Made by a program: the position numbers and the translations under genes
From: a virus
Lineage: Duplodnaviria > Heunggongvirae > Uroviricota > Caudoviricetes
Length of the DNA stretch: 64,000 nucleotides
IMG/VR virus record: IMGVR_UViG_2799112330_000002
Location: 96,001-160,000 of that record
Strand: one strand, 5' to 3'
The notes under the pieces: generated by a model
The model's database searches: none
What the model was told of the DNA's origin: nothing
What the model saw: the letters and a program-made list of their open reading frames with translations, nothing else
Shown: positions 3,001 to 28,007 of the stretch, in pieces
Position numbering within the stretch: position 1 is the stretch's first letter
Layout: each line of letters begins with the position of its first letter

Positions 3001-6000
3001 CTTATCAGAAGAACAACGTATAGTATTAGGTGGTCAAGATGATTATGAAAAGGCTGTTAATTACTGGAAGCAACAAGTTTCATTAAATCCTGATAAAGAT
3101 GTAAGACTACATTCAATGATTTGGCTTGTAGCTATGAGAAGAGCATTTGGTACTAATTCATCAGGTAAGCATAACTTTGATTTTGTTGATAATGCAATCA
3201 TCAAACTTTGGGGTTCTACTAATAGTACAATTGCTAAGGAAGATGGTAAGTTGACAGAAGAAGACTATAACTTACTTATTGATGAGTCATTGTTTGGTCC
3301 TTCATATATGGCATCTACCTCAAGTGTAAGATTTGAAGCTGCATGTACTTCACAAGTAACATTCATTTCTATTGTAGAGGATGGAAAGATCATACAGCCA
3401 ACTCAAGAAATGAACCGTAATGTATATCGTCTTAATTCAGGATCTACTGCAAATATTGTTACAACAATATTCCCAATGGGTGGAAATGAAACACTCGTAT
3501 TTGCACCTTCATTATGCGGTGGTACTGGCGGATGGAATATAATCAATGGTTCATTCCAACCATCAGAAATTGATGGACAAATAGTATATACAAGAATAGG
3601 TAATATTGCTGGAGAAAATAGTGCTTCAGTTTTGACAAATAGATCACAAGGTGCAGAATTGTATATTGGTGAATTTATTGGATCACAATCAGATACTACA
3701 GTTAATATGCAAGTTTCTGTTATGACAAAGACTGGAAATGAACAACCTAATCCTACAGGTAATATTATTTATCTTTCTATTAATAAGATCATTCCGCCAT
3801 TAAATGAACAAATAGTTATTGAAGATGATAATCAGCAAGTCGTAAGTAATATTACAATAACTAAAGCTCAAAAATATACATATAGTATATATTATGATTT
3901 AGGAGTTGATAATACATTAGAGTTCATTAATCTAAAAGTTAGAAATATTAGTATTGGATATGATCTATCAGGATCAGGTATTACATTAGATCAAATAGGT
4001 CTTATTGGTACATTTACTCCACATCCTAATACAGAAAAACTTGTGGTTGAAAACAATAGAATCAAACTTGGTACTATTGAGTATGATGCAAAAATACATA
4101 AAGCAAATGTATCATTTATTACTAATATAACTATTGATTATGAAACTGTATTGAATAATCAAAATAATGCCGCATCATTAAGATTTGAGGTACAAAATAA
4201 CCCAATTGATGAAATTGATATTGAATTTAATGAGGAACTTCTTGAAAGAACTTCTTATAGTTATTCTGACTTAGAAACAAAACTTGTTGAAAATGGAATT
4301 AATTATATCAATTATCAAGGTATATTAGATCTAATTGGAAGTGATTATGCACAAAATATCAATTATATTGAGTTAACTCAATACTTACAAGAATCAGATA
4401 GCATTAATTATGACTATAATTTGAAGTTTGATAAAGATGACGGATATAACATTGATATTAAATCAGTTAATGTAACAGATGTATCTGGATTACTTAACGC
4501 AAATGTCATTTTGAATAACAGAAATGCCTTTACAGAAAACAAGTTCACTTTACAGTTTAATGATAATAAGTTCTCTTCAATATATATGGGTTATATCTTA
4601 GTAACATTAACTGATGAATTTGATAGAATAACATATCTTGTAATTAGATATGATGTTGGTATGCTATACCCAGATCAATATGTTATCTATAAGCAAGATT
4701 CATATGACAATGTTGGAGACATTACTGATACAACTGCTAAATATGTTATAAGCAATACTGGTAATATATCAAATACAATATTAGATACATATGTATTAAA
4801 TGAATTGAATTCAGAAAATGCATTAAAACAAAAAAATATTAGATATACAATTAAGATTGCTTCATTTGTAGATGGTATTACTAAAGAATGGGAAAGCATT
4901 GATAATATTAATCATAAAGCTATTAAAGACTATTTGTCTAAATTTGAATTAAGATATAGTGATGACACATTAATAATTAATGATAATTCTTCACAATCAG
5001 ATAATCAGTGGAATAATAGTGATACAACTACTATCAAATATGTACATATAGAAGGTCAAGATGATGCTATTTACATAGATGGTATAAAGACTGGATTTGT
5101 ATTTAATTTAGTTACTAAATATGACAAAGGAGTAAATAAACCTGATAGTATACATATTGATATTATAAAAACATTATCTGGTTCAACATCTGAATTTAAA
5201 TATTGTTATTATACCAATATATACAAAGTAATGGCAAAATATATCAATGGAGAAACCCCAACACAACCAGGAGTATATGTATTTGACAATAAACTCAATT
5301 TATATGACACAAGTGTTGAGGTAAGCCAAACAATTGGTCGTTCATATGAAGGTGTATGCATTGCGGTTGAAGTTGGTGATGATATTGTTACATACACAAT
5401 TGATAAAGATTGTTTCAGTAATGATAATAAGAAAGTATTCTTCAATCCTGGATCAAAATTTGCTCAAGCTATAACTACTCATCCAACAACAGGTTCTCCA
5501 AGTATACCTCGTATAATAACATTTGATCATTCAAATTCTGCCCAACATTATCTTAATACATTAATGCCATGTATAACTGATATTGAAAATCCATCAATTT
5601 CAGCAAATGTAAATAATAGGGAATGGAATCAAGACTGGTTTATGAGAGGCTATATTATGTTATGGATTATGATATGTTATCTAAATAATGATAATATTAA
5701 TGGTTTATATACAATATTGGATAATGGTTATATAAATATGAATACAGATAATAGTTTAGATAAAAGATATGTTAAATTTAATGATAGTAATAAATATGCA
5801 TGGGATAGAGATAATTTATCTGTAGTAATAAATGAGGTCATTAATCCACATATATATGAACTTATCAATGAAAATAAACTTTATGAATATATCTATAACT
5901 GGTATTGCTTTGTTTCTACAATGTTTACACTGGCCGACAATAATAATCAAAGAATGATTAATGGGCAAAAGGATGATATTAATATAATTATATCTTCTGT

Positions 6001-18137: not shown

Positions 18138-19175
18138 ATGGATAAAAAATATTTAATAATATATCATAAAGAAGATAATGATGGTGTATTTTCTGGTGCA
18201 ATCTTTAAGGACTATCTGATGTATGAATTGAATATTGCTGAAGCTGATATTGATGTATTGCCAGCTGACTACAATATATTAGCAGATTTCTCAAAAGCTT
18301 ATTCCGACATGGAGAAACTTAAAGAAGAATATACTCATATCATAATGACTGACTTGTCTTTCAATGACTGGAAATATATGAAGAAGCTTTATAATGCATA
18401 TGAGTCTAATCTTGTTTGGGTAGATCATCATGCTCCTATTATACAATGTTCAATTGACAATAATTTTGATGATATCCCAGGATTGAGAGACACAAGTAGG
18501 TCAGCAATATTGAATGCTTGGAAATATCTTTATGATCAATTTGATGAAGCATACAAGCAGAAGAAAGTACCAGAACTGTTGAGAATATTGTCTGCTTGGG
18601 ATTCTTGGTCATATGAACGTGAAGGATATGATTTTGGTTATGTTAAAGATGTCAATAAGGGTGTTACCGACAAATATGATCTAAATTTGAAGAAAGTATG
18701 CAAGCTTATTGAAATCATCAAAGTATATTATAGAGATGAATCTGACTTGACAAAAGACAACAATATCATTTTAGACATGTATAATCATGGTCATGCTCTT
18801 AATGAATATGAAGACAAGAAGATGACAGACATTGTAAAGAACTCTGGTGATATGACATGGCAAGTATGGGATTATGATGAAGAAGATTCTGCCCATCCAA
18901 TTATTCATAAAGCATGTGCAATATTTCATCAAGGTGCTACAAATTCTACTATGTTCAAGTGCTTAGAAGGCTCAGTAATAAGACATGGTTTAGTATTCAA
19001 GCATCAACCAAATGGTAATTGGGTATTGTCAATGTATAATGTTGAGAACAAAGATCCATTCCACTGTGGAGAGTTCTTGAAAAACAAATACAATGGTGGA
19101 GGTCATGCCGGTGCTGCTGGTTGTACATTCACTTTAGAGCAGTTTATAAAAATATTGAAGAACAAGAGACTATAG
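18138..19175 (+). CDS. DHH/DHHA1 family phosphoesterase
   Basis: YHKEDNDG, MTD, WVDHH, GGGHAGAAG. Confidence 0.9.
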   Translation: MDKKYLIIYHKEDNDGVFSGAIFKDYLMYELNIAEADIDVLPADYNILADFSKAYSDMEKLKEEYTHIIMTDLSFNDWKYMKKLYNAYESNLVWVDHHAPIIQCSIDNNFDDIPGLRDTSRSAILNAWKYLYDQFDEAYKQKKVPELLRILSAWDSWSYEREGYDFGYVKDVNKGVTDKYDLNLKKVCKLIEIIKVYYRDESDLTKDNNIILDMYNHGHALNEYEDKKMTDIVKNSGDMTWQVWDYDEEDSAHPIIHKACAIFHQGATNSTMFKCLEGSVIRHGLVFKHQPNGNWVLSMYNVENKDPFHCGEFLKNKYNGGGHAGAAGCTFTLEQFIKILKNKRL

Positions 19176-19176
19176 T

Positions 19177-19587
19177 ATGAAAAGATGGGATCAGTTGAAA
19201 GCTGGTGACTACATATATTATTATGATCATCAGAAAATACATAAGCAATTAGTAAAGAAAGTAGACACAATAGCATTTACCAAAAACGAAAAGTCATTTG
19301 ACGGTAATTTCAATATTGTCACATCAAAGGTTGTTGAAGAATATTTATTGATCTATGCTGGAAAGAATACATTGATAAAACTTCCAAAGAACTGGATAAA
19401 GACTCAATGTGAGAAATATAATGACTATTCTATAAGATATGAGTGCATGCCAAGGTTTTGTGATGAAGAAGATGCTCGAGCATATATGGAGAAACTCATT
19501 TCTATTCGTAAGAAAAGAGTAGAAAAATATGAGAAAAAATATCTTAAAGAAAAGAAGATCTTGGACTCTTATTGCTTAGAAATTTAA
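19177..19587 (+). CDS. Hypothetical protein
   Basis: ORF starts 1 nt after the previous TAG. Confidence 0.6.
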   Translation: MKRWDQLKAGDYIYYYDHQKIHKQLVKKVDTIAFTKNEKSFDGNFNIVTSKVVEEYLLIYAGKNTLIKLPKNWIKTQCEKYNDYSIRYECMPRFCDEEDARAYMEKLISIRKKRVEKYEKKYLKEKKILDSYCLEI

Positions 19588-19636
19588 GATCTATTGTTTA
19601 TTTTTATATACAAATTTCCTATTTTTATAACGTATT

Positions 19637-19885
19637 ATGAAGACACTTGAAGGCTATATAAATGAAATGCATATTGAAGATAATATATTGAAGAGAATAT
19701 ATTTTCATACTTGTATAGAATTCAAACTGCCACATAATCTTTATCCTTATATAGTTGAAAGCAATGGAAAGTTTGAGCAATTAGGCCCAAGACTAGTTTG
19801 TCAATATATAGACATGAATCTTAAAGAAGTATGTTTTGACAATAGTCTATTAGATGAAGAAACATATTGGGACAATTTAATATAA
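19637..19885 (+). CDS. Small protein with capsid-targeting-like N-terminus
   Basis: MKTLEGYINE. Confidence 0.55.
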   Translation: MKTLEGYINEMHIEDNILKRIYFHTCIEFKLPHNLYPYIVESNGKFEQLGPRLVCQYIDMNLKEVCFDNSLLDEETYWDNLI

Positions 19886-19911
19886 AAGAAAAATATATAT
19901 GGAAGAAATTT

Positions 19912-20712
19912 ATGAAAGTAATCAAACGTGATGGCACTCCTCAGGAATATTCGTTCATAAAGATTGCAGATGCTATAAGTAAAGCATTTGAATCAGTTGG
20001 ACAGGATGTTCCTGAAAAGTTTTTAGAACAAGTGAAAGACTCAGTTGAAAAGCTAATAATCAAAAACAATGGTCAAGGAACACCAATTGAAGAAATTCAA
20101 GATGTCATACAAAAGGAATTGATAAAAAGAAACAAATATGAAGTTGTAGAAGCATTCATAAACTATAGAAGAAAACGTGAAGAGATTCGTGAGCAGAAGA
20201 CCGACTTAATGAAGCAAATTCAGGAAAAACTTTCTGCAAGTAATGTCCAAAATCAGAACGCCAATCTAGATGAAGCTTCATTTGGCGGAAGACTTGGAGA
20301 GACTGCAGGAGCTGTTGCCAAGAATCTTGCATTGAAGAAAATGTCAAAACAGTCACGAAAGAATCATGATGACAATATGATATATGAGCATGATCTAGAC
20401 CATTTTATGACAGGAGACCATAATTGCTTAAGTATTCCATTTGATAAGTTATTAGCGGAAGGATTTAAGACAAGACAGACAGATGTTAGACCCGCTGGTT
20501 CAGTAAATACCGCAATGCAATTAGTAGCAGTAATTTTCCAATTACAAAGTCTTCAACAGTTTGGTGGTGTAGGTGCAACTCATATTGACTGGACAATGGT
20601 ACCTTATGTAAGAAAATCATTTATGAAACATTTTAAAGAAGGACTGAAATATTGTGAAGGAAAGACTGATGAAGAAATTGAAAAGATAATTAATGATATA
20701 TTAAAAGATTAA
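19912..20712 (+). CDS. nrdD: Anaerobic ribonucleotide reductase NrdD, fragment A (ATP cone plus N-terminal barrel)
   Basis: MKVIKRDG ATP cone, YEHDLD, HNCL, QSLQQFGG, DWTMVPYVRKSF; ends in TAA. Confidence 0.9.
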   Translation: MKVIKRDGTPQEYSFIKIADAISKAFESVGQDVPEKFLEQVKDSVEKLIIKNNGQGTPIEEIQDVIQKELIKRNKYEVVEAFINYRRKREEIREQKTDLMKQIQEKLSASNVQNQNANLDEASFGGRLGETAGAVAKNLALKKMSKQSRKNHDDNMIYEHDLDHFMTGDHNCLSIPFDKLLAEGFKTRQTDVRPAGSVNTAMQLVAVIFQLQSLQQFGGVGATHIDWTMVPYVRKSFMKHFKEGLKYCEGKTDEEIEKIINDILKD

Positions 20713-20713
20713 T

Positions 20714-20869
20714 ATGAAAAGATATAAGATACATTATAGAAAGAATAGTTTAGAAAATTGGACTGAATATGATAATGTAGTATATGAAGACTATTGTCTG
20801 GCTTATTATGTTATGAGAGATATTCAAGAGCAGTTTTCTAATTATTGTTTTGAAATATATGAAATATAA
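20714..20869 (+). CDS. Small hypothetical protein (51 aa) inside nrdD gap 1
   Basis: MKRYKIHYRKNSLENWTEY...; ATG 1 nt after the nrdD-A stop; below the ORF-track cutoff. Confidence 0.5.
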   Translation: MKRYKIHYRKNSLENWTEYDNVVYEDYCLAYYVMRDIQEQFSNYCFEIYEI

Positions 20870-20887
20870 AAAAAAAATATATTATAT

Positions 20888-21124
20888 ATGAAAAGCTTTA
20901 AAAAATATATTAAAATAAATGAATCGGTCAAACCAGAAAATGGAAAAGACTGGGAAGTATATCTTGATGGTTCTTTAGACAATACTTTTACCGAATGGGC
21001 TAAGAAATGGAAGAAATATCCAAAAATAGGTAAAGGATGGTATGCCGGAGGAACTGTATTCAAGGTAGTAAAGATAGAAGACAATAAAGTATATGTTGAA
21101 GAAGATAAAAACTGCAAACCATAA
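20888..21124 (+). CDS. Small protein with capsid-targeting-like N-terminus inside nrdD gap 1
   Basis: MKSFKKYIKINE. Confidence 0.6.
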   Translation: MKSFKKYIKINESVKPENGKDWEVYLDGSLDNTFTEWAKKWKKYPKIGKGWYAGGTVFKVVKIEDNKVYVEEDKNCKP

Positions 21125-21175
21125 AAATTTATAAAAAATAATGTGAAAATAAGTTGATTTCCAAAGCAAAAATGA

Positions 21176-21190
21176 TTATTTTTAATTATA
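21176..21190 (+). promoter_or_regulatory. Putative late promoter of the homing endonuclease gene
   Basis: TTATTTTTAATTATA 20 nt upstream of the ATG. Confidence 0.55.
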
Positions 21191-21209
21191 AAAATATGAA
21201 TTATAAAAT

Positions 21210-22526
21210 ATGTTAAAAGAAGAAATATTAACTATATTTAAACAAAAAAATATAATATCTTCAAATAATAAAAAACATTTTTGTTGGAAGAAATATTGGG
21301 ATTTGGAAGCAGAACAAATATTTAATGAGTTTAAACAAAATTATAGAACTGATAAAGAAGCATGGTTTTGTCTTTTACATAATATTGAACCATACCATTG
21401 TGAGATATGTGGTGAATTAGCAAAATTTACAGGAAATATAAAATCTAAAATTATTGGATATAATACAACATGTGAAAATCATTCTCCAAATCAAGTTAAA
21501 AATAAATTAGAAAAATTTTCACAAACAATTAGTAATCATACTGATAATGATAGAAAAAAAATATTAGAAAAACGCAAAAAAACTAATTTAGAAAAATATG
21601 GAGATGAAAACTATACTTTATTTGGATCTGATAGTTTTAAGCAAACTTTAAAAGAAAAATATGGAAATGAACATTATAATAATAGAGAAAAATTTAAAGA
21701 AACATGTTTAGAAAAATATGGAGTTACATGCAATTTATCATTAAATTCTTCAGAAAGAAATAAAAAAATATGGGATGAAAAATATGATAAAATCATTAAT
21801 AAAATTAAACAAACAAATTTAGCTAATTTAGGAGTAGAATTTATAGGACAATCTAAAGAAATAATTGATAAAATTGTTAATACTAAAAAGAATAATGTTT
21901 TAAATATAGAAAAAACTTATAATTGTACTCAACAACGAAAATTATTTCAAAAATATGGGCAGGGGTGGAAATCTTTACATTTAGATAAAATTATTATACA
22001 TGGTAGAAAATTTATATCAAATGAATATATTCCGCTAATAGAAAAATATTTTAATGAATGTCATCATACAAATCAATTTACGTCTAAAGGAGAAAAAGAA
22101 CTATTAAAATATATAAAATCAATATATTCAGGTATTGTACTAGAAAATGTTACAAATATAGTTGCAAACAATAATTATAGATATTATGAATTAGATATAT
22201 ATTTACCTGAAAAAAATATAGCATTTGAATTTAATGGTATATATTGGCATTCAATAAATTATAAAGATAAATTTTATCATCAAAGAAAAACATTATTATG
22301 TTATGCTCAAAATGTACAATTAATACATATATGGGAAAATGAATGGTTAAATAAGCAAGATCAAATAAAACAACAAATAAAAGAATTACTAAATGGTCAA
22401 GATTGTTCAAAATATAATTGGATATCTGTTAATGATTATTCTAATTATATTTTATCTGAACCAGAAGAAATACATGTAGGAAATTTAACAATATTTAATG
22501 AAGGAAAATTTATTAAAAATATATAA
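21210..22526 (+). mobile_element. Free-standing homing endonuclease (Vsr/DUF559/EDxHD-like PD-(D/E)xK C-terminal domain)
   Basis: CEICG Zn motif, repeated KxTxLEKYG units, SKGEKEL...ELDIYLPEKNIAFEFNGIYWH; more AT-rich than its neighbours; lies within nrdD. Confidence 0.8.
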
Positions 22527-22536
22527 AGTAAAATAT

Positions 22537-22675
22537 ATGAATGTAACAGATATTGAAATTACAGATTCCAAGTATAAACAATATAAAAATGCTTGGAATT
22601 ATGCTATGGATATGACTGAAAAAGAAATCCATCAAGCAGTTGAAGGAATGTATCACAACTTAAATACTTTGCAGT
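22537..22675 (+). CDS. nrdD: NrdD fragment B, exon 1
   Basis: AWNYAMDMTEKEIHQAVEGMYHNLNTLQ followed by the first base of the Ser codon. Confidence 0.85.
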
Positions 22676-23025
22676 TGAATAAAAAATTTAATATGGCTGC
22701 CTAACTATATAATACATAAATAGTTATGAAAAAATGAGCAAAATCGGTAGCAGTTGGAATTAAGTTTCCGAGAGATAAGGTTAAATAACGAATAAGCTGC
22801 AGAAGAAAACCTAAGGTCCAAACATATATTTGGATAGCTGGTAATACCGAGGTAAATTTATAGATTACGAAAGGCTATAAATCACCGTAGAGCGTAGGAA
22901 ATGAATAAATATAATTTTCCCAAGAGTGCTCATCATCTTAGTTATTAAAAGATGAAAATGTACGCCGAACTTATGGAGAAATTACATAAGAAGTTAAGAT
23001 AAAAAGCTTAGCGATAACAAATTTG
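22676..23025 (+). ncRNA. ORF-less group I intron (350 nt) in nrdD
   Basis: Removal restores CAG T|CA AGG AGT GGG AAT CAG = QSRSGNQ. The 5' exon ends in U paired to G in P1 (GCAGU/GCUGC) and the intron ends in G. P3 GAGCA/UGCUC; P7 GCGUA/UACGC within ccgtagagcgta and aaatgtacgccga. Confidence 0.92.
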
Positions 23026-23438
23026 CAAGGAGTGGGAATCAGCTCCCGTTCACCAGTATCAATTATGGAACCTGTCCATTAGAAGCTGGACGTATGGTTA
23101 CTAAAGCATTGTTAGAAGTATCTATGGAGGGATTAGGCAATAATGGAGTAACATCAATTTTTCCATGTGGAATCTTCCAATATAAGAAAGGAATTAATGA
23201 CAAACCCGGAACACCAAACTATGACTTAAAGAGACTAGCATTAAAATCAACATCAATGAGAATATATCCAAATTATTGTAACGCTGACTGGACAAATAAT
23301 GCTAATGCACTAAAACAAGACAGAAAACAAAAGCAAGAATATATTGATTCATTGTCTGAAAAAGAATACGCAAAACTAGTGGAAGTTTTAGAACAAAATC
23401 CTAATGTTGCAGAAAAACTTGGATTAGAATTAGAATAA
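23026..23438 (+). CDS. nrdD: NrdD fragment B, exon 2
   Basis: RSGNQLPFTSINYGTC...TSIFPCGIFQ...PNYDL...RIYPNY; ends LELE then TAA TGA. Confidence 0.88.
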
Positions 23439-23461
23439 TGATTAATGAATAATATTACAAT

Positions 23462-23635
23462 ATGAAAACAACAGATAAAAATTTGCATATAATAGCAAAA
23501 AGAATATCTTATAAAGTAAATGAAGAAGACATAAAGACAATTATTCCTATTATTATGCCATATAGTTTACATACAATTGGAATTATGACTTTAGGAAACT
23601 ATAATGATGACAAAAAATACAAAAGAAATATATAA
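23462..23635 (+). CDS. Small hypothetical protein (57 aa) inside nrdD gap 2
   Basis: MKTTDKNLHIIAKRISYKV... fills the gap between fragments B and C. Confidence 0.45.
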   Translation: MKTTDKNLHIIAKRISYKVNEEDIKTIIPIIMPYSLHTIGIMTLGNYNDDKKYKRNI

Positions 23636-23647
23636 AGACATAAAGAT

Positions 23648-24814
23648 ATGAAGAAAATCAAAGTTAGTTTAGAAGAACGACCTATTGAATTATTTAACAC
23701 TATGGGGTGCCGCACGGTCAATTTATTAGATATAAATGCATTAGATAATTTCAAACAAAATATACAAAATGTCATTAATGGAGAATTCAACAAGATTGAT
23801 GATGTTTTCTCCGCTATTCAGAAAGATGGACGTGGAAATATATGCCCAGTAACTATCATATTACCTACTCTTGCTGCAATGACAAGAAGAAAACTTGAAA
23901 AGAAAGAACAGTTTGACAATAAAGAACTAGTATGGGAAGAATTCATGAAGTTAGTAGACAAGAAAATACATGAAGCAAAAGACATGTTATTAGAAAGATT
24001 CAACCATATCTGTTCACAATCACCAAAGTCTGCAAGATTTATGTATGAAAATAATACAATGTCGGGGTATCATAAAAATGAAGGAATCATATCAGCATTG
24101 AAGCATGGAACACTTGTAATAGGTCAAATCGGTATGTCTGAAACTTTATATCTTTTGTTTGGATTTGATCATACTACAGAAAAGGGAATGGAATATGCAA
24201 AACAGATTGAACAACTTTGGTTAGACAGAACATCAGAATTTAAGAAAGAATATAAACTAAACTTTGGAGTCTATTATACACCAGCAGAGAATCTTTGCTT
24301 CACTTCATTCAACAAATTTAGAAAAGCATTTCCTGAATATGACTTAGAAGGTGTCACTTATTTTGTTGATTCTAATGGAGAAAAGAACTACAAAAAATAT
24401 TTCACTAATTCTATTCATGTACCAGTATATTATAATTGCGATGTATTCAATAAGATTGATATAGAAAGTCAACTCACAGGTTATTCAAACGCCGGGTGCA
24501 TCACTTATGTAGAGTTAGACAGTACATGCTATAATAATATAGATGCTATTGAAAAGATTGTTGACTATGCTATGGATAAAGACATTCCTTACTTTGCATT
24601 GAACATACCATTGAACAGATGTGCAGAATGCGGTGAGCCTATCTATGATGAAGCATTGACAGAATGTCCAAAATGTGGTTGTGACAAGATAACAAGGCTT
24701 GGACGAATAACTGGCTATCTTTCTACAACTGTGGAACATTTCAATAAAGGAAAGCAAAAAGAATTCAAAGATAGAGTTGATCATATAGGACAAAGTATAT
24801 TTAGTGATTGTTGA
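23648..24814 (+). CDS. nrdD: NrdD fragment C (finger-loop Cys, Zn ribbon, glycyl-radical loop)
   Basis: TMGCRT, DGRGNICPVTIILP, YYTPAENLC, YFTNSIHVPV, CAEC..CPKC, RITGYL. Confidence 0.92.
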   Translation: MKKIKVSLEERPIELFNTMGCRTVNLLDINALDNFKQNIQNVINGEFNKIDDVFSAIQKDGRGNICPVTIILPTLAAMTRRKLEKKEQFDNKELVWEEFMKLVDKKIHEAKDMLLERFNHICSQSPKSARFMYENNTMSGYHKNEGIISALKHGTLVIGQIGMSETLYLLFGFDHTTEKGMEYAKQIEQLWLDRTSEFKKEYKLNFGVYYTPAENLCFTSFNKFRKAFPEYDLEGVTYFVDSNGEKNYKKYFTNSIHVPVYYNCDVFNKIDIESQLTGYSNAGCITYVELDSTCYNNIDAIEKIVDYAMDKDIPYFALNIPLNRCAECGEPIYDEALTECPKCGCDKITRLGRITGYLSTTVEHFNKGKQKEFKDRVDHIGQSIFSDC

Positions 24815-24958
24815 TAGATTATGAAAAGAATTATTGGAGAAACTATCTATATGTCATATGTCTTGATTGTAAGCTTGATTGGGATTTTCTTTACATTCAA
24901 AAAATAATACATGTTTAACAGAAAGAAACTGTTTTTGAACAATTAGAAACTAAAATAA

Positions 24959-24973
24959 TTATTTTTAATTATA
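24959..24973 (+). promoter_or_regulatory. Putative late promoter motif
   Basis: TTATTTTTAATTATA. Confidence 0.55.
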
Positions 24974-25008
24974 AAATACTCAATTAATTACAAGTTTATA
25001 ATATTATT

Positions 25009-25695
25009 ATGTTAACTATTCCTATTTTCATTACGGCTAGAGGCAATGACAAGAATACGTTTGCTAAAAATAAAGAAGCATTGAAGTTTTCTTATTTGTT
25101 TATAAGGGATCAGAATCTTTTTGATCAGACGTATATCATATCGGACAACAAAGATATGCTTAACTATGCATTAAAGATAGGCTTCAAACATATAATCCAT
25201 TATCCATGTGGATCTAAGAAAGACCTTAAATATCTAGAATATTTTGCTACATATAGATTTGCTGTTGATAATGACTATAGACCTGATTGGATCATATTAT
25301 TAAATATCAATCAATTGTTTAAAGACAATTCATTATTGATAAACTGTATAAATAATATTGATGACAAATACAATGTTGTAGCATCTTATACAGAAATATC
25401 AAATAGAAGCCATTTCTTTATTAATGATGATATGGAACTTAATAAGACTGATGAGCATCTACTATCAAGTGAATATCATAGAGTACGGATGATAGATGCT
25501 GCTATATATGCAGTAAAGACAACATTTGCTTTTGAATGTATGGAATATGATGATCCTTCTGAACATTTCTGGTCAACAAAGATAAAGTATTTCAAGAATA
25601 AGTCATTGTTTACAGACATATATGAAATTGCTGACATAAACAAATATTATACAGTAGGAGATGTAATTAATGAAGTAAAGATGATTGAAGACTAA
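25009..25695 (+). CDS. NeuA/KdsB-like cytidylyltransferase family protein (divergent)
   Basis: IPIFITARG...KNK, IISDN, D.AIY..K, TDIYE..D follow the CMP-sugar synthetase layout. Confidence 0.55.
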   Translation: MLTIPIFITARGNDKNTFAKNKEALKFSYLFIRDQNLFDQTYIISDNKDMLNYALKIGFKHIIHYPCGSKKDLKYLEYFATYRFAVDNDYRPDWIILLNINQLFKDNSLLINCINNIDDKYNVVASYTEISNRSHFFINDDMELNKTDEHLLSSEYHRVRMIDAAIYAVKTTFAFECMEYDDPSEHFWSTKIKYFKNKSLFTDIYEIADINKYYTVGDVINEVKMIED

Positions 25696-25701
25696 TTATA
25701 C

Positions 25702-25739
25702 AAAAAATGGTCAACTTGTTTCTCAACAAATCAACCATT
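25702..25739. terminator. Hairpin/terminator (T-run on the minus strand)
   Basis: aaaaaatggtcaacttgtt-tctc-aacaaatcaaccatt. Confidence 0.55.
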
Positions 25740-25774
25740 GTATAAACAATTAAAATTCAAAAATTATTAACAAC

Positions 25775-25812
25775 TTACAATAATAATATAGTTTAATTAG
25801 AGAAAAATTCAA
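25775..25812 (-). promoter_or_regulatory. Early-type promoter motif (minus strand)
   Basis: Reverse complement is ttgaatttttctctaattaaactatattattattgtaa, near-identical in form to 30169..30207. Confidence 0.6.
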
Positions 25813-25816
25813 AATA

Positions 25817-25847
25817 AAAATGAGAAATTCTTAGAATTTCTCATTTT
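25817..25847 (-). terminator. Terminator of the holin-like gene
   Basis: aaaatgagaaattc-tta-gaatttctcatttt. Confidence 0.7.
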
Positions 25848-25879
25848 GTTTTTATATATGATTATTTATACTTTCTTTT

Positions 25880-26656
25880 TTATTTTGTATACTTATATCT
25901 AAGATTAAGTATTGATGTAAGTTCTGCAACTTGTATATGTAATTGGTTCAGGTTAAGATGTTCAATAGAATTCTCTTTCTTGTATTCTAGTACAAATAGA
26001 CCAACTAACATATTGTTCTTGTCATACATTCCAGTATATATGATTGTCTCACTTAAGTCTTCTTTAAGTAATGCATATAAACTTGGACTGTTTTGTTGTA
26101 GATCATCAATATTATATATTACTTGTTGGTTTTCAGCTTGTTTCAATTCATTTACTACATAAGATAAAGAGCTAATAGACAAGTTTCTGCATTTGAATTG
26201 TAATGGTGACAATCCTTTATCAAACCATTCATAGAAACAAGAATATCTTGGGAAAGGAATACCAGACAAATTTTCTCCAGAGTTATGAAAAGAAAGAACA
26301 AAAGCACGTTGAGCATTATGTATATTCATTATGTCTTTGAGCGTCATATTGATCTCTTCTGACAATTCCATTTTCTTATTAAGCATGACATTATGATTCT
26401 CTTGCCTAGATATGTCTTTCTTTATTATATAGTCTACTAATTGTTTTTGTTGATCTATAATAGTATTTGTGAGCTTGTCATTTTGCTCGGACATTTTGTT
26501 TACTAGATTTTCACCAACTTTATCTAAACCATTGGTTACATCTTTAGTGATCTTTTTTGAGATATGTTTACTTATTAAATATAAGACAATGCAGATAACA
26601 ATTCCAAGTAATCCCCACCATCCGTAAAGTTTGAAAATTTCAAAAAGTACAGTCAT
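25880..26656 (-). CDS. Holin-like membrane protein with C-terminal GAF-like domain
   Basis: One N-terminal TM helix, a coiled coil, then FHNSG..G.PF..S..YE; architecture like the T4 gp t holin. Confidence 0.5.
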   Translation of the reverse strand: MTVLFEIFKLYGWWGLLGIVICIVLYLISKHISKKITKDVTNGLDKVGENLVNKMSEQNDKLTNTIIDQQKQLVDYIIKKDISRQENHNVMLNKKMELSEEINMTLKDIMNIHNAQRAFVLSFHNSGENLSGIPFPRYSCFYEWFDKGLSPLQFKCRNLSISSLSYVVNELKQAENQQVIYNIDDLQQNSPSLYALLKEDLSETIIYTGMYDKNNMLVGLFVLEYKKENSIEHLNLNQLHIQVAELTSILNLRYKYTK

Positions 26657-26952
26657 ATTTGTAATATTCTACATATAATTAATCATTGAATGATATATAT
26701 TAAAAATAAAAATTACCTCATTGGATAATTATTATACTTACTATATATTATCCTTATTTTATTTGCCTCCGTTCATATTTTAATGTCTTGAGCTCATAAA
26801 ACATTATGATCATTATGATGATAAAACATTAAAAAAATATTATTTATCTAATTAAAAATAAAACAAAAAATGTGACTATTTTTATTATATATAATATGTT
26901 GGGAAATCTACCCTAATTGATTGTCAGCATACGTTAGATACTTACTATTTTT

Positions 26953-26967
26953 TTATTTTTAATTATA
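26953..26967 (+). promoter_or_regulatory. Putative late promoter motif
   Basis: TTATTTTTAATTATA. Confidence 0.5.
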
Positions 26968-26989
26968 TCAAATATACATATATATAGAG

Positions 26990-27481
26990 GTGAATATGCT
27001 TAGAATTGTAGACATAACTGCTCCAGACATCAATAATGGAAATGGTATTAGAGTGACCTTATGGGTTGCGGGTTGTAAACATCATTGCAAAGGCTGTCAT
27101 AATCCTTGGACATGGAACTTTGATCAGGGAAAGTCTTGGTATTATGAAAAAGAATATATAAAGAAAAAATTGTCAGAATGGCTTTCGAAAGACTATGTTG
27201 AAGGTTTGACATTATCTGGAGGAGACCCATTATGCCAAGATATAGCAGGATTGCATGAGATAGTTGAAATTATTGGTTGGGTGCGAGAAACATTCCCTAC
27301 AAAAACTATCTGGCTTTATACTGGATATGTATATGAAGATCTTACTGATCTTAAAAAAGAAATTGCTAATTCAGTTGATGTATTAGTTGATGGTCCTTAT
27401 GTAGAAGAACTAAGAGACATTGCTCATACACCATTCAGAGGAAGCACAAACCAAAGACTTATTTATATGAAAGAAAAATAA
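26990..27481 (+). CDS. nrdG: Anaerobic RNR activase (radical SAM)
   Basis: NGNGIRVTLWVAGCKHHCKGCHNP, LSGGDP, FRGSTNQR. Confidence 0.95.
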   Translation: MNMLRIVDITAPDINNGNGIRVTLWVAGCKHHCKGCHNPWTWNFDQGKSWYYEKEYIKKKLSEWLSKDYVEGLTLSGGDPLCQDIAGLHEIVEIIGWVRETFPTKTIWLYTGYVYEDLTDLKKEIANSVDVLVDGPYVEELRDIAHTPFRGSTNQRLIYMKEK

Positions 27482-27500
27482 TAATGATATATAGAGACAA

Positions 27501-27971
27501 ATGAAGAAGACAAACATATTAGTAGTATTTGACTATGGAGATACTCCTGATTCCAAATATGTACAAGAACTTAATAACGTATTGAACAAGAACAAATACA
27601 ATATCATATCAGAATATTATGCCCAATACAGTCCTAAAGAAGCTAAGACAGATATTGAAAACATTTCAAGGGAAAAGAAGATTGATATCTATGTAGGTAT
27701 TGGACTTGGTGGATATATTTTGACTTTATTAGATAATGATTTCAAGAAGATATTGATAGATCCTATATTTGATCCTGAGACAGAACTTAAAGACATTCCT
27801 GCTCATGTAATTGATTTCTATAAGAAAGACAAAATAGAAATGAAGAACAAAAACATTATAACTATGTTTATTGATAAAATCCCTAATGGATATAAAGATA
27901 TAACAGATGTGGCTAATATTCATGAAGAAGACATCTACAAGACTATAAAGAACATAATAGAAAAATCATAA
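27501..27971 (+). CDS. YqiA/UPF0227-like alpha/beta-hydrolase fold, catalytic Ser absent
   Basis: YVGIGLGGY...KILIDP resembles GxSLGG...iliNP. Confidence 0.45.
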   Translation: MKKTNILVVFDYGDTPDSKYVQELNNVLNKNKYNIISEYYAQYSPKEAKTDIENISREKKIDIYVGIGLGGYILTLLDNDFKKILIDPIFDPETELKDIPAHVIDFYKKDKIEMKNKNIITMFIDKIPNGYKDITDVANIHEEDIYKTIKNIIEKS

Positions 27972-28007
27972 AATTATTTTTAATAAAATATAAATATATA
28001 CAAGAAT

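Follow-up and report, generated by a model that had tools for sequence, protein, structure and literature searches.

The catalytic subunit of the class Ia ribonucleotide reductase (RNR) of phage Aeh1 is encoded in pieces, in the order NrdA-a, mobE and NrdA-b (PMC3045599), and the class II RNR of Pseudomonas aeruginosa is split into NrdJa and NrdJb (PMC4520616); a split class II RNR of the Thermus phage phiYS40 is among the cases cited in PMC3653736. According to a 2013 survey, nrdD, the gene of the class III enzyme, is the RNR gene most often interrupted in phages, either by introns and inteins or in an unexplained manner, as in phiAS4 (PMC3653736). Fragmented nrdD genes are described in the Jug huge gut phages (360-402 kb, 27-30% GC content, genetic code 11), where they occur in 95 of 104 genomes, with one example in four fragments (PMC12880540; PMC12363816), and the metatranscriptome gave no splicing across one nrdD break (PMC12880540). 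Lastly, YfiD/GrcA and T4 Y06I are autonomous glycyl-radical spare parts (cited in PMC13450708). The present analysis concerns a window of 64,000 nucleotides (nt), bases 96001-160000 of a 410,106-bp contig with 29.2% GC and phage-like gene content (IMG/VR record IMGVR_UViG_2799112330_000002), in which nrdD consists of three pieces, A, B and C, separated by two gaps that hold other genes (Table 1). On the basis of sequence comparison, we assign a probability of roughly 0.8 to the reading that A, B and C are separately translated and functional together as NrdD; the three chains would most likely assemble non-covalently into one NrdD fold.

Like Aeh1 NrdA, this NrdD is cut at break 1 (between A and B) by a free-standing homing endonuclease gene and not by an intron or intein, the pieces have separate starts and stops, and the active-site residues are spread over different chains. 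Conversely, it is an oxygen-sensitive class III glycyl-radical enzyme in three chains instead of a class I enzyme in two, and its gaps also hold genes that do not code for endonucleases. Moreover, the Aeh1 tails derive from the mobE insertion and are essential (PMC3045599), whereas the pieces in the window show no added terminal tails in comparison with the contiguous relatives L235 and L011 or with P0032-type fusions. The split NrdJ, too, is a catalytic subunit whose parts are encoded as distinct polypeptides by neighbouring genes, but it comes in two pieces, is B12-dependent and has no intervening genes. In GrcA and Y06I, a fold is completed non-covalently by a separate chain, as proposed here for NrdD, although these are repair modules for pyruvate formate-lyase and not constitutive RNR subunits. 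The contig resembles the Jug phages in size, GC content (29%) and code 11 and also encodes an eIF-1a-like protein, a likeness that is not an assignment to the group; the fragments quoted for those phages (230 and 91 amino acids, aa) differ in size from the pieces in the window, and the Jug papers report fragmentation without break positions, terminus conservation, selection or a multi-chain enzyme. The literature searched contains no report of a natural multi-chain glycyl-radical enzyme, and a 2026 review of the family names only the GrcA/Y06I spare parts. The locus is thus the first well-supported case of a three-chain RNR, of class III and widespread, the principle of a split RNR being known. 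A preliminary description of the locus had proposed a three-piece enzyme that goes beyond the Aeh1 precedent: the number of chains and the class do so, and the separate open reading frames (ORFs), conserved termini and selection speak for the enzyme itself, but the novelty is tempered because the principle has precedents (PMC3045599, PMC4520616) and because nrdD fragmentation in huge gut phages, including an unspliced break, is in print (PMC12880540).

The same description had read A, B and C as collinear and as containing every NrdD motif, and both points agree with the Pfam order and with the alignment of homologues. Specifically, the NRDD catalytic domain (PF13597) is spanned in order by A (profile positions 2-140, E 1.7e-26), B (152-254) and C (254-562, E 2e-71), with the ATP-cone recognised in A (E 7e-20) and Gly_radical in C. 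The HNC cysteine is on A, and MGCRT, the glycyl motif RITGYL and the Cys4 zinc site (C-x-x-C...C-x-x-C) are all on C, the placement originally given for the HNC and MGCRT motifs; none of the columns of HNC, MGCRT, the glycyl motif and the zinc site varies among 60 contiguous homologues. The pieces each start with an ATG and end with a stop of their own at the coordinates first proposed, and nrdG, the activase gene, is intact as claimed. Piece A starts with the ATG at 19912, which gives the N-terminus MKVIKRDG common to all homologues, whereas the ORF-finder start (TTG 19867) has no such support. The ORF finder sees B as two parts (22537-22704 and 23094-23438), which removal of an intron joins into 183 aa with no internal stop; an in-frame ATG lies upstream at 22498, and the B proteins of relatives start at the equivalent of 22537 with M-x-x-T-D-I-E-I-T-D. 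The pieces have 30-38% GC, and this split copy is the sole nrdD on the 410-kb contig. The 30 nt upstream of the three ATGs are A/T-rich, like those of other window genes; no Shine-Dalgarno sequence was found at the 30 window gene starts checked, and a weak consensus scan of the + strand from 20014 to 25817 returned no terminator-like site. The sequence is compatible with co-transcription of A to C on one transcript.

The strongest support comes from relatives, drawn from IMG/VR, JGI and GTDB loci and from protein records, with terminus counts made on the best 120 protein clusters per piece in searches limited to proteins of similar length. Stand-alone A, B and C proteins with these termini are found in public metagenomes at 59-100% identity. 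The A-type end is shared by 84 of these 120 clusters at 64-99% identity, and stand-alone A proteins measure 265-269 aa (288 aa with an N-terminal insert) and end in ...E-I-x-x-I-x-x-I-L-x-D. For B, at least 97 of the 120 have the same end, comprising 40 complete stand-alone B proteins of 183-197 aa, which start with M-x-x-T/E-D-I-E-I and end in ...K-L-G-L-E-I/L-x-E, and 57 others. The C-type start recurs in 27 of the 120 at 59-100% identity, in proteins of 361-393 aa with the head M-K-K-I-K-V-x-L-E-E-R-P-I-E-x-F-x-T-M-G-C-R-T, one of them encoded on a 660-kb NCBI contig. In L234, B, an unrelated 183-aa ORF and C follow each other with termini as in the window, while gap 2 of L274 holds three unrelated ORFs; across loci, gap 2 measures 209 nt, 577 nt or ~1.7 kb, with unrelated contents. 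To judge from these comparisons, the gap contents turn over and the protein termini stay fixed. The same clade also contains forms with A separate from a fused B+C (L009, L013 and 571-582-aa proteins), forms with a fused A+B of 445-465 aa that ends at the position of break 2 (between B and C), and contiguous genes (L010, L011, L235, L237, L240 and L157). A maximum-likelihood tree of 126 A cores, 87 split and 39 contiguous at break 1, requires at least 24 changes of state, 14 of them forced by branches with Shimodaira-Hasegawa-like approximate likelihood ratio test (SH-aLRT) values of at least 95, and several split/contiguous pairs have almost identical A cores; this quick tree of short recombining sequences is used only for frequent interchange and coexistence. 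Accordingly to that scope, the compared sequences have the split form persisting beside the fused one, with frequent interchange of the two states. Megablast against the phage collection returned no close relative, and a scan of genome contigs returned only relatives of at most 72% identity and no three-piece case.

On models of contiguous relatives, both breaks map to loops, as had been supposed. The closest solved NrdD, that of Prevotella copri (8P23, E 3e-87), lacks the break regions or aligns poorly there, and AlphaFold single-chain models of two contiguous relatives were used: L011 (856 aa; predicted local distance difference test score, pLDDT, 90.5; predicted template modelling score, pTM, 0.86) and L235 (837 aa, 80% identical to A+B+C; pLDDT 91.1, pTM 0.87). 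Break 1 corresponds to a surface loop that follows helix 253-264 in L235, where the ten-residue block of lowest confidence in this region is found (pLDDT 74, with 90-97 in its surroundings). Break 2 separates the two short strands of a beta-hairpin (450-452/458-460 in L235; 460-463/466-469 in L011, with the turn at D464-N465), within a lineage-specific helical insertion. Given this hairpin, the end of B (LELE) and the start of C (KIKV) would pair across chains as neighbouring strands in the split enzyme, a plausible docking element.

Instead of assembling as separate chains, the pieces might be joined into one polypeptide by a hidden mechanism, such as an unrecognised intron type, trans-splicing, ribosomal bypass or intein-free ligation, which we consider unlikely. 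In its favour, nrdD of this clade is rich in true introns and inteins at other sites, and an Rfam search of positions 19000-28000 (E up to 1) gave no match, not even for the evident intron inside piece B, so that this null is uninformative for phage introns. However, the gaps are filled with same-strand ORFs, one of them under purifying selection, and the length and content of gap 2 vary while termini, starts and stops are conserved. The true introns and inteins of the clade hit the most conserved codons (between MG and C of MGCRT, NTLQ and S, RITG and YL, and at reference positions 160, 223, 626 and 680), and their downstream parts have no start codon, unlike those of breaks 1 and 2. A case in point is the nrdD of Thomasclavelia phage TR-TP1, the closest isolate (55-56% identity, same lineage), whose coding sequence is broken close to the catalytic cysteine: A and B run on without a gap (421 aa), and the sole interruption, with an HNH endonuclease, lies directly before GCRT and looks like an intron rather than a gene split because the downstream part has no start codon. 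The absence of an intein or intron core at the breaks, noted at the outset, agrees with the more specific searches. The residues flanking both breaks align one for one with contiguous homologues, which leaves no intein-sized surplus at either break; split inteins and protein trans-splicing were rejected on this ground, and the Pfam scan of the pieces found no intein domain. A comparison of the gaps with 116 insert sequences from related nrdD loci found no similarity save the 78-aa ORF and the endonuclease of gap 1, and the predicted fold of the gap 2 RNA is no more stable than those of shuffled sequences (z = -0.15); a group I intron was rejected as an explanation of either gap on the lack of core similarity, the low GC content (19-27%), the ORF-filled gaps, the conserved start and stop codons and the unstructured gap 2. 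Programmed DNA excision was discarded because the gap flanks contain only AT-rich chance repeats and no recombinase is found among the gap ORFs (Pfam, PHROG), and stop-codon reassignment in the window because the gap ORFs are in other frames and both nrdD pieces at the breaks end in TAA. Lastly, the length of the gaps and the variability of their content led us to reject ribosomal bypass: the bypassing gap of T4 gene 60 is 50 nt, and the gaps here are far longer.

It is slightly less likely again that nucleotide reduction still involves only some of the pieces, with A, for instance, turned into a free ATP-cone regulator or C working together with the host enzyme. Piece A does contain the whole allosteric ATP-cone, and the split and fused states interchange freely; but A also bears barrel elements and the invariant HNC cysteine, B has no conceivable stand-alone function and is equally constrained, and the pieces adjoin one another in the readable loci (window, L009, L013 and L234). 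A further alternative, very improbable in our estimate, is that nrdD is broken and non-functional and that the host NrdD supplies deoxynucleotides. A gene interrupted three times would normally pass for a pseudogene, the nrdD of phiAS4 is an unexplained broken case (PMC3653736), and other contigs of the assembly carry two nrdD-like genes of full length. Against it, the pairwise ratios of non-synonymous to synonymous substitution rates (dN/dS) among the window, L009, L013 and L234 are 0.08-0.10 for A, 0.09-0.14 for B and 0.09-0.19 for C, values that are approximate since dS (~1-2) is near saturation. These denote purifying selection, not the ratio near 1 of a pseudogene, and uphold the early impression that there is no decay; moreover, the catalytic residues are intact, nrdG is kept, and the termini are conserved across lineages to ~60% identity. 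Misassembly or a chimeric contig has next to no likelihood as the source of the breaks, for although the sequence comes from a 1.9-Mb low-GC metagenome-assembled bin with 7% contamination, of which it is by far the largest contig, the same termini occur on many independent contigs and the same architecture on independent JGI and IMG/VR contigs; several other contigs have identical or nearly identical pieces, and the C cluster has 17 members on five contigs, the longest of ~410 kb. All the sequence-based checks that the preliminary description had set against itself turned out in its favour.

In the preferred reading, NrdD would be encoded by three genes, probably co-transcribed and each translated from its own ATG. 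A would bring the ATP-cone and the first active-site cysteine, B the middle part after one required RNA splice, and C the thiyl-radical cysteine, the zinc ribbon and the glycyl radical site; the chains would assemble non-covalently, and NrdG would then activate chain C. The breaks would have arisen by insertion of endonuclease genes into two surface loops, and the new intergenic spaces would then have gathered small accessory genes. Some points weigh against this account: break 1 is placed on the model of a relative and not on the window protein, the dN/dS ratios are approximate as stated, gap 2 of the window holds no endonuclease, so that its origin is deduced from relatives, and the two full-length nrdD-like genes on other contigs, if they are those of the host, mean that the phage enzyme need not be essential.

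As to the origin of the breaks, endonucleases occupy both break sites in relatives, which makes insertion of free-standing endonucleases the likely cause. At break 1 of L024 (~50% identity), the sole occupant is a 457-aa homologue (38%) of the window endonuclease, of DUF7487 type; at break 2, the endonucleases are of NUMOD3 type in L044, of HNH/I-HmuI type in L074 and L178, and of DUF7487 type in L060, and in all five loci the endonuclease gene adjoins or overlaps the nrdD ORFs on either side of it. On this comparative evidence, the breaks were probably made by insertion of free-standing homing endonuclease genes, and gap 2 of the window either lost such a gene or never had one.

Table 1. Features of the split nrdD locus (positions in the window)
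Feature	Coordinates	Strand	Description
nrdD piece A	19912..20712	+	266 aa; ATP-cone and N-terminal catalytic domain with the HNC cysteine; ends in ...EIEKIINDILKD-stop
nrdD piece B, exon 1	22537..22675	+	ends in ...HNLNTLQ and the first base of a Ser codon
nrdD piece B, exon 2	23026..23438	+	ends in ...KLGLELE-stop; Pfam NRDD profile 152-254, E 5e-19
nrdD piece C	23648..24814	+	388 aa; finger-loop Cys (TMGCRT), second barrel half, zinc ribbon, glycyl motif RITGYL
Intron in piece B	22676..23025	+	350 nt; structured, group I-like, ORF-less; 5' exon ends in U, intron ends in G
51-aa ORF, gap 1	20714..20869	+	ATG one base past the stop of A
78-aa ORF, gap 1	20888..21124	+	N-terminus MKSFKKYIKINE; weak match to PHROG 13424
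438-aa ORF, gap 1	21210..22526	+	free-standing homing endonuclease, putatively I-Bth0305I-like; stops 10 nt short of the B start codon
57-aa ORF, gap 2	23462..23635	+	
nrdG activase	26990..27481	+	Fer4_12, E 2.6e-42; Radical_SAM; intact

The ORF list bears out the three genes in gap 1 and the one in gap 2 that had been counted. Gap 1 (20713-22536) has 19-27% GC and all three of its ORFs on the nrdD strand, gap 2 (23439-23647) is 209 nt long, and no non-coding stretch in the gaps exceeds 85 nt. The 438-aa ORF occurs once in the assembly; it matches DUF7487 and PHROG 3339 'homing endonuclease' (E 1.9e-44), and its residues 328-392 match weakly (E 0.006) the 'mobile intron protein' of PDB 3R3P, the catalytic domain of I-Bth0305I. 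The 78-aa ORF is also present in gap 1 of both L009 and L013, at 76-80% identity and with dN/dS of 0.09-0.20. The 51-aa ORF is without a Pfam or PHROG match. The 57-aa ORF has no family match in Pfam and PHROG either, and a search of 1.84 billion representative proteins gave only four homologues of it, the best of them 82% identical and 57 aa long as well. Most nrdD-gap ORFs of the clade share a leader, M-K-x-(L/F)-x-E-Y-I-x-E, which is found at 20888-21124 and 19637-19885 in the window and at 5077-6272 in L009, 9924-11976 in L013, 833-3591 in L234 and 480-2141 in L274. The leader, including MKSFKKYIKINE, resembles the capsid-targeting sequence of the T4 internal proteins, MKTYQEFIAE, and the leader-bearing ORFs may code for packaged cargo proteins whose genes take up new intergenic spaces. 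The 82-aa ORF at 19637-19885, just 5' of piece A, matches both ends of a 317-326-aa protein with an HExxH motif, which sits inside gap 1 in L009 (5077-6057) and L234 (833-1786); from this match, the ORF looks like an internally deleted remnant of that protein.

The intron inside piece B is a feature separate from the two breaks. Excision of the insert restores NTLQ-S-RSGNQLPF, and an intron-less stand-alone B protein (P0121) is 96% identical across exon 2. The intron is 88% identical to an insert at the same site in L260, and its core blocks recur in the inserts of L096, L019, L024 and L147, also at another nrdD site. Moreover, 16 of the 30 predicted pairs show compensatory changes, and the fold beats all 100 shuffles (z = -2.9); because Rfam gives no match, the intron is labelled group I-like with no class assigned. 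The endonuclease of gap 1 ends 150 nt upstream of the intron, a pairing also present in L260, and the intron could spread by the cut of the neighbouring endonuclease (collaborative homing).

Further observations concern nrdG and the nrdD genes of relatives. In most relatives nrdG follows nrdD directly, within ~20 nt; in the window, the interval (24815-26989) contains a 228-aa + strand ORF without a family match and a 258-aa minus-strand ORF, and nrdG probably starts at ATG 26996. Many related phage nrdD genes have in-frame TAG codons (L187, L030, L058, L281 and L312) or TGA codons (L019) in frames that are otherwise intact, which points to stop-codon reassignment in those phages; code 11 gives a normal reading of the window. 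Three nrdD ORFs of 1041-1085 aa (L020 8001-11255, L209 4263-7385 and L192 8212-11334) contain an in-frame insertion of ~300 residues, in L020 just before MGCRT; these insertions are probably inteins at the site of the introns of other relatives. Several C pieces (P0251, P0275, P0284, P0286 and P0328, and L234 at ~4680-4710) end in ...GRITGW-K-x-A-A-stop, sequences that indicate a further intron right after the codon of the glycyl-radical glycine. Lastly, in nrdD of bacterial metagenome-assembled genomes (Lachnospiraceae, Desulfovibrionaceae and Butyricicoccus according to the record titles; L107 3126-5633, L116 8957-11559, L129 9107-11678 and L138 9047-11558), the main ORF stops past the zinc ribbon, and the glycyl motif RRITGYLVGT...DRVKH lies on a separate downstream frame of ~50-120 codons, mostly another frame. 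This arrangement may represent a frameshift, a spare part or a naturally two-chain NrdD whose glycyl-radical subunit is free.

The split layout might itself be put to use, either with the glycyl-radical chain C, the part that oxygen destroys, as a replaceable cartridge, in the way of GrcA for pyruvate formate-lyase, or with the ATP-cone chain A as a separable regulatory subunit exchanged between co-infecting phages; this idea is doubtful, but if true it would explain the frequent interchange of split and fused states in the clade. In glycyl-radical enzymes, the radical is buried inside a ten-stranded barrel. The contiguous, two-piece and three-piece forms constitute a natural allele series that differs only at two loop positions, and it makes testable whether the barrel and the radical transfer path can be built from three polypeptides and what effect this has on the activation by NrdG. 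The series also bears on how a gene recovers from homing-endonuclease invasion without splicing and, for annotation, a fragmented nrdD in huge gut phages is not to be taken as a pseudogene by default.

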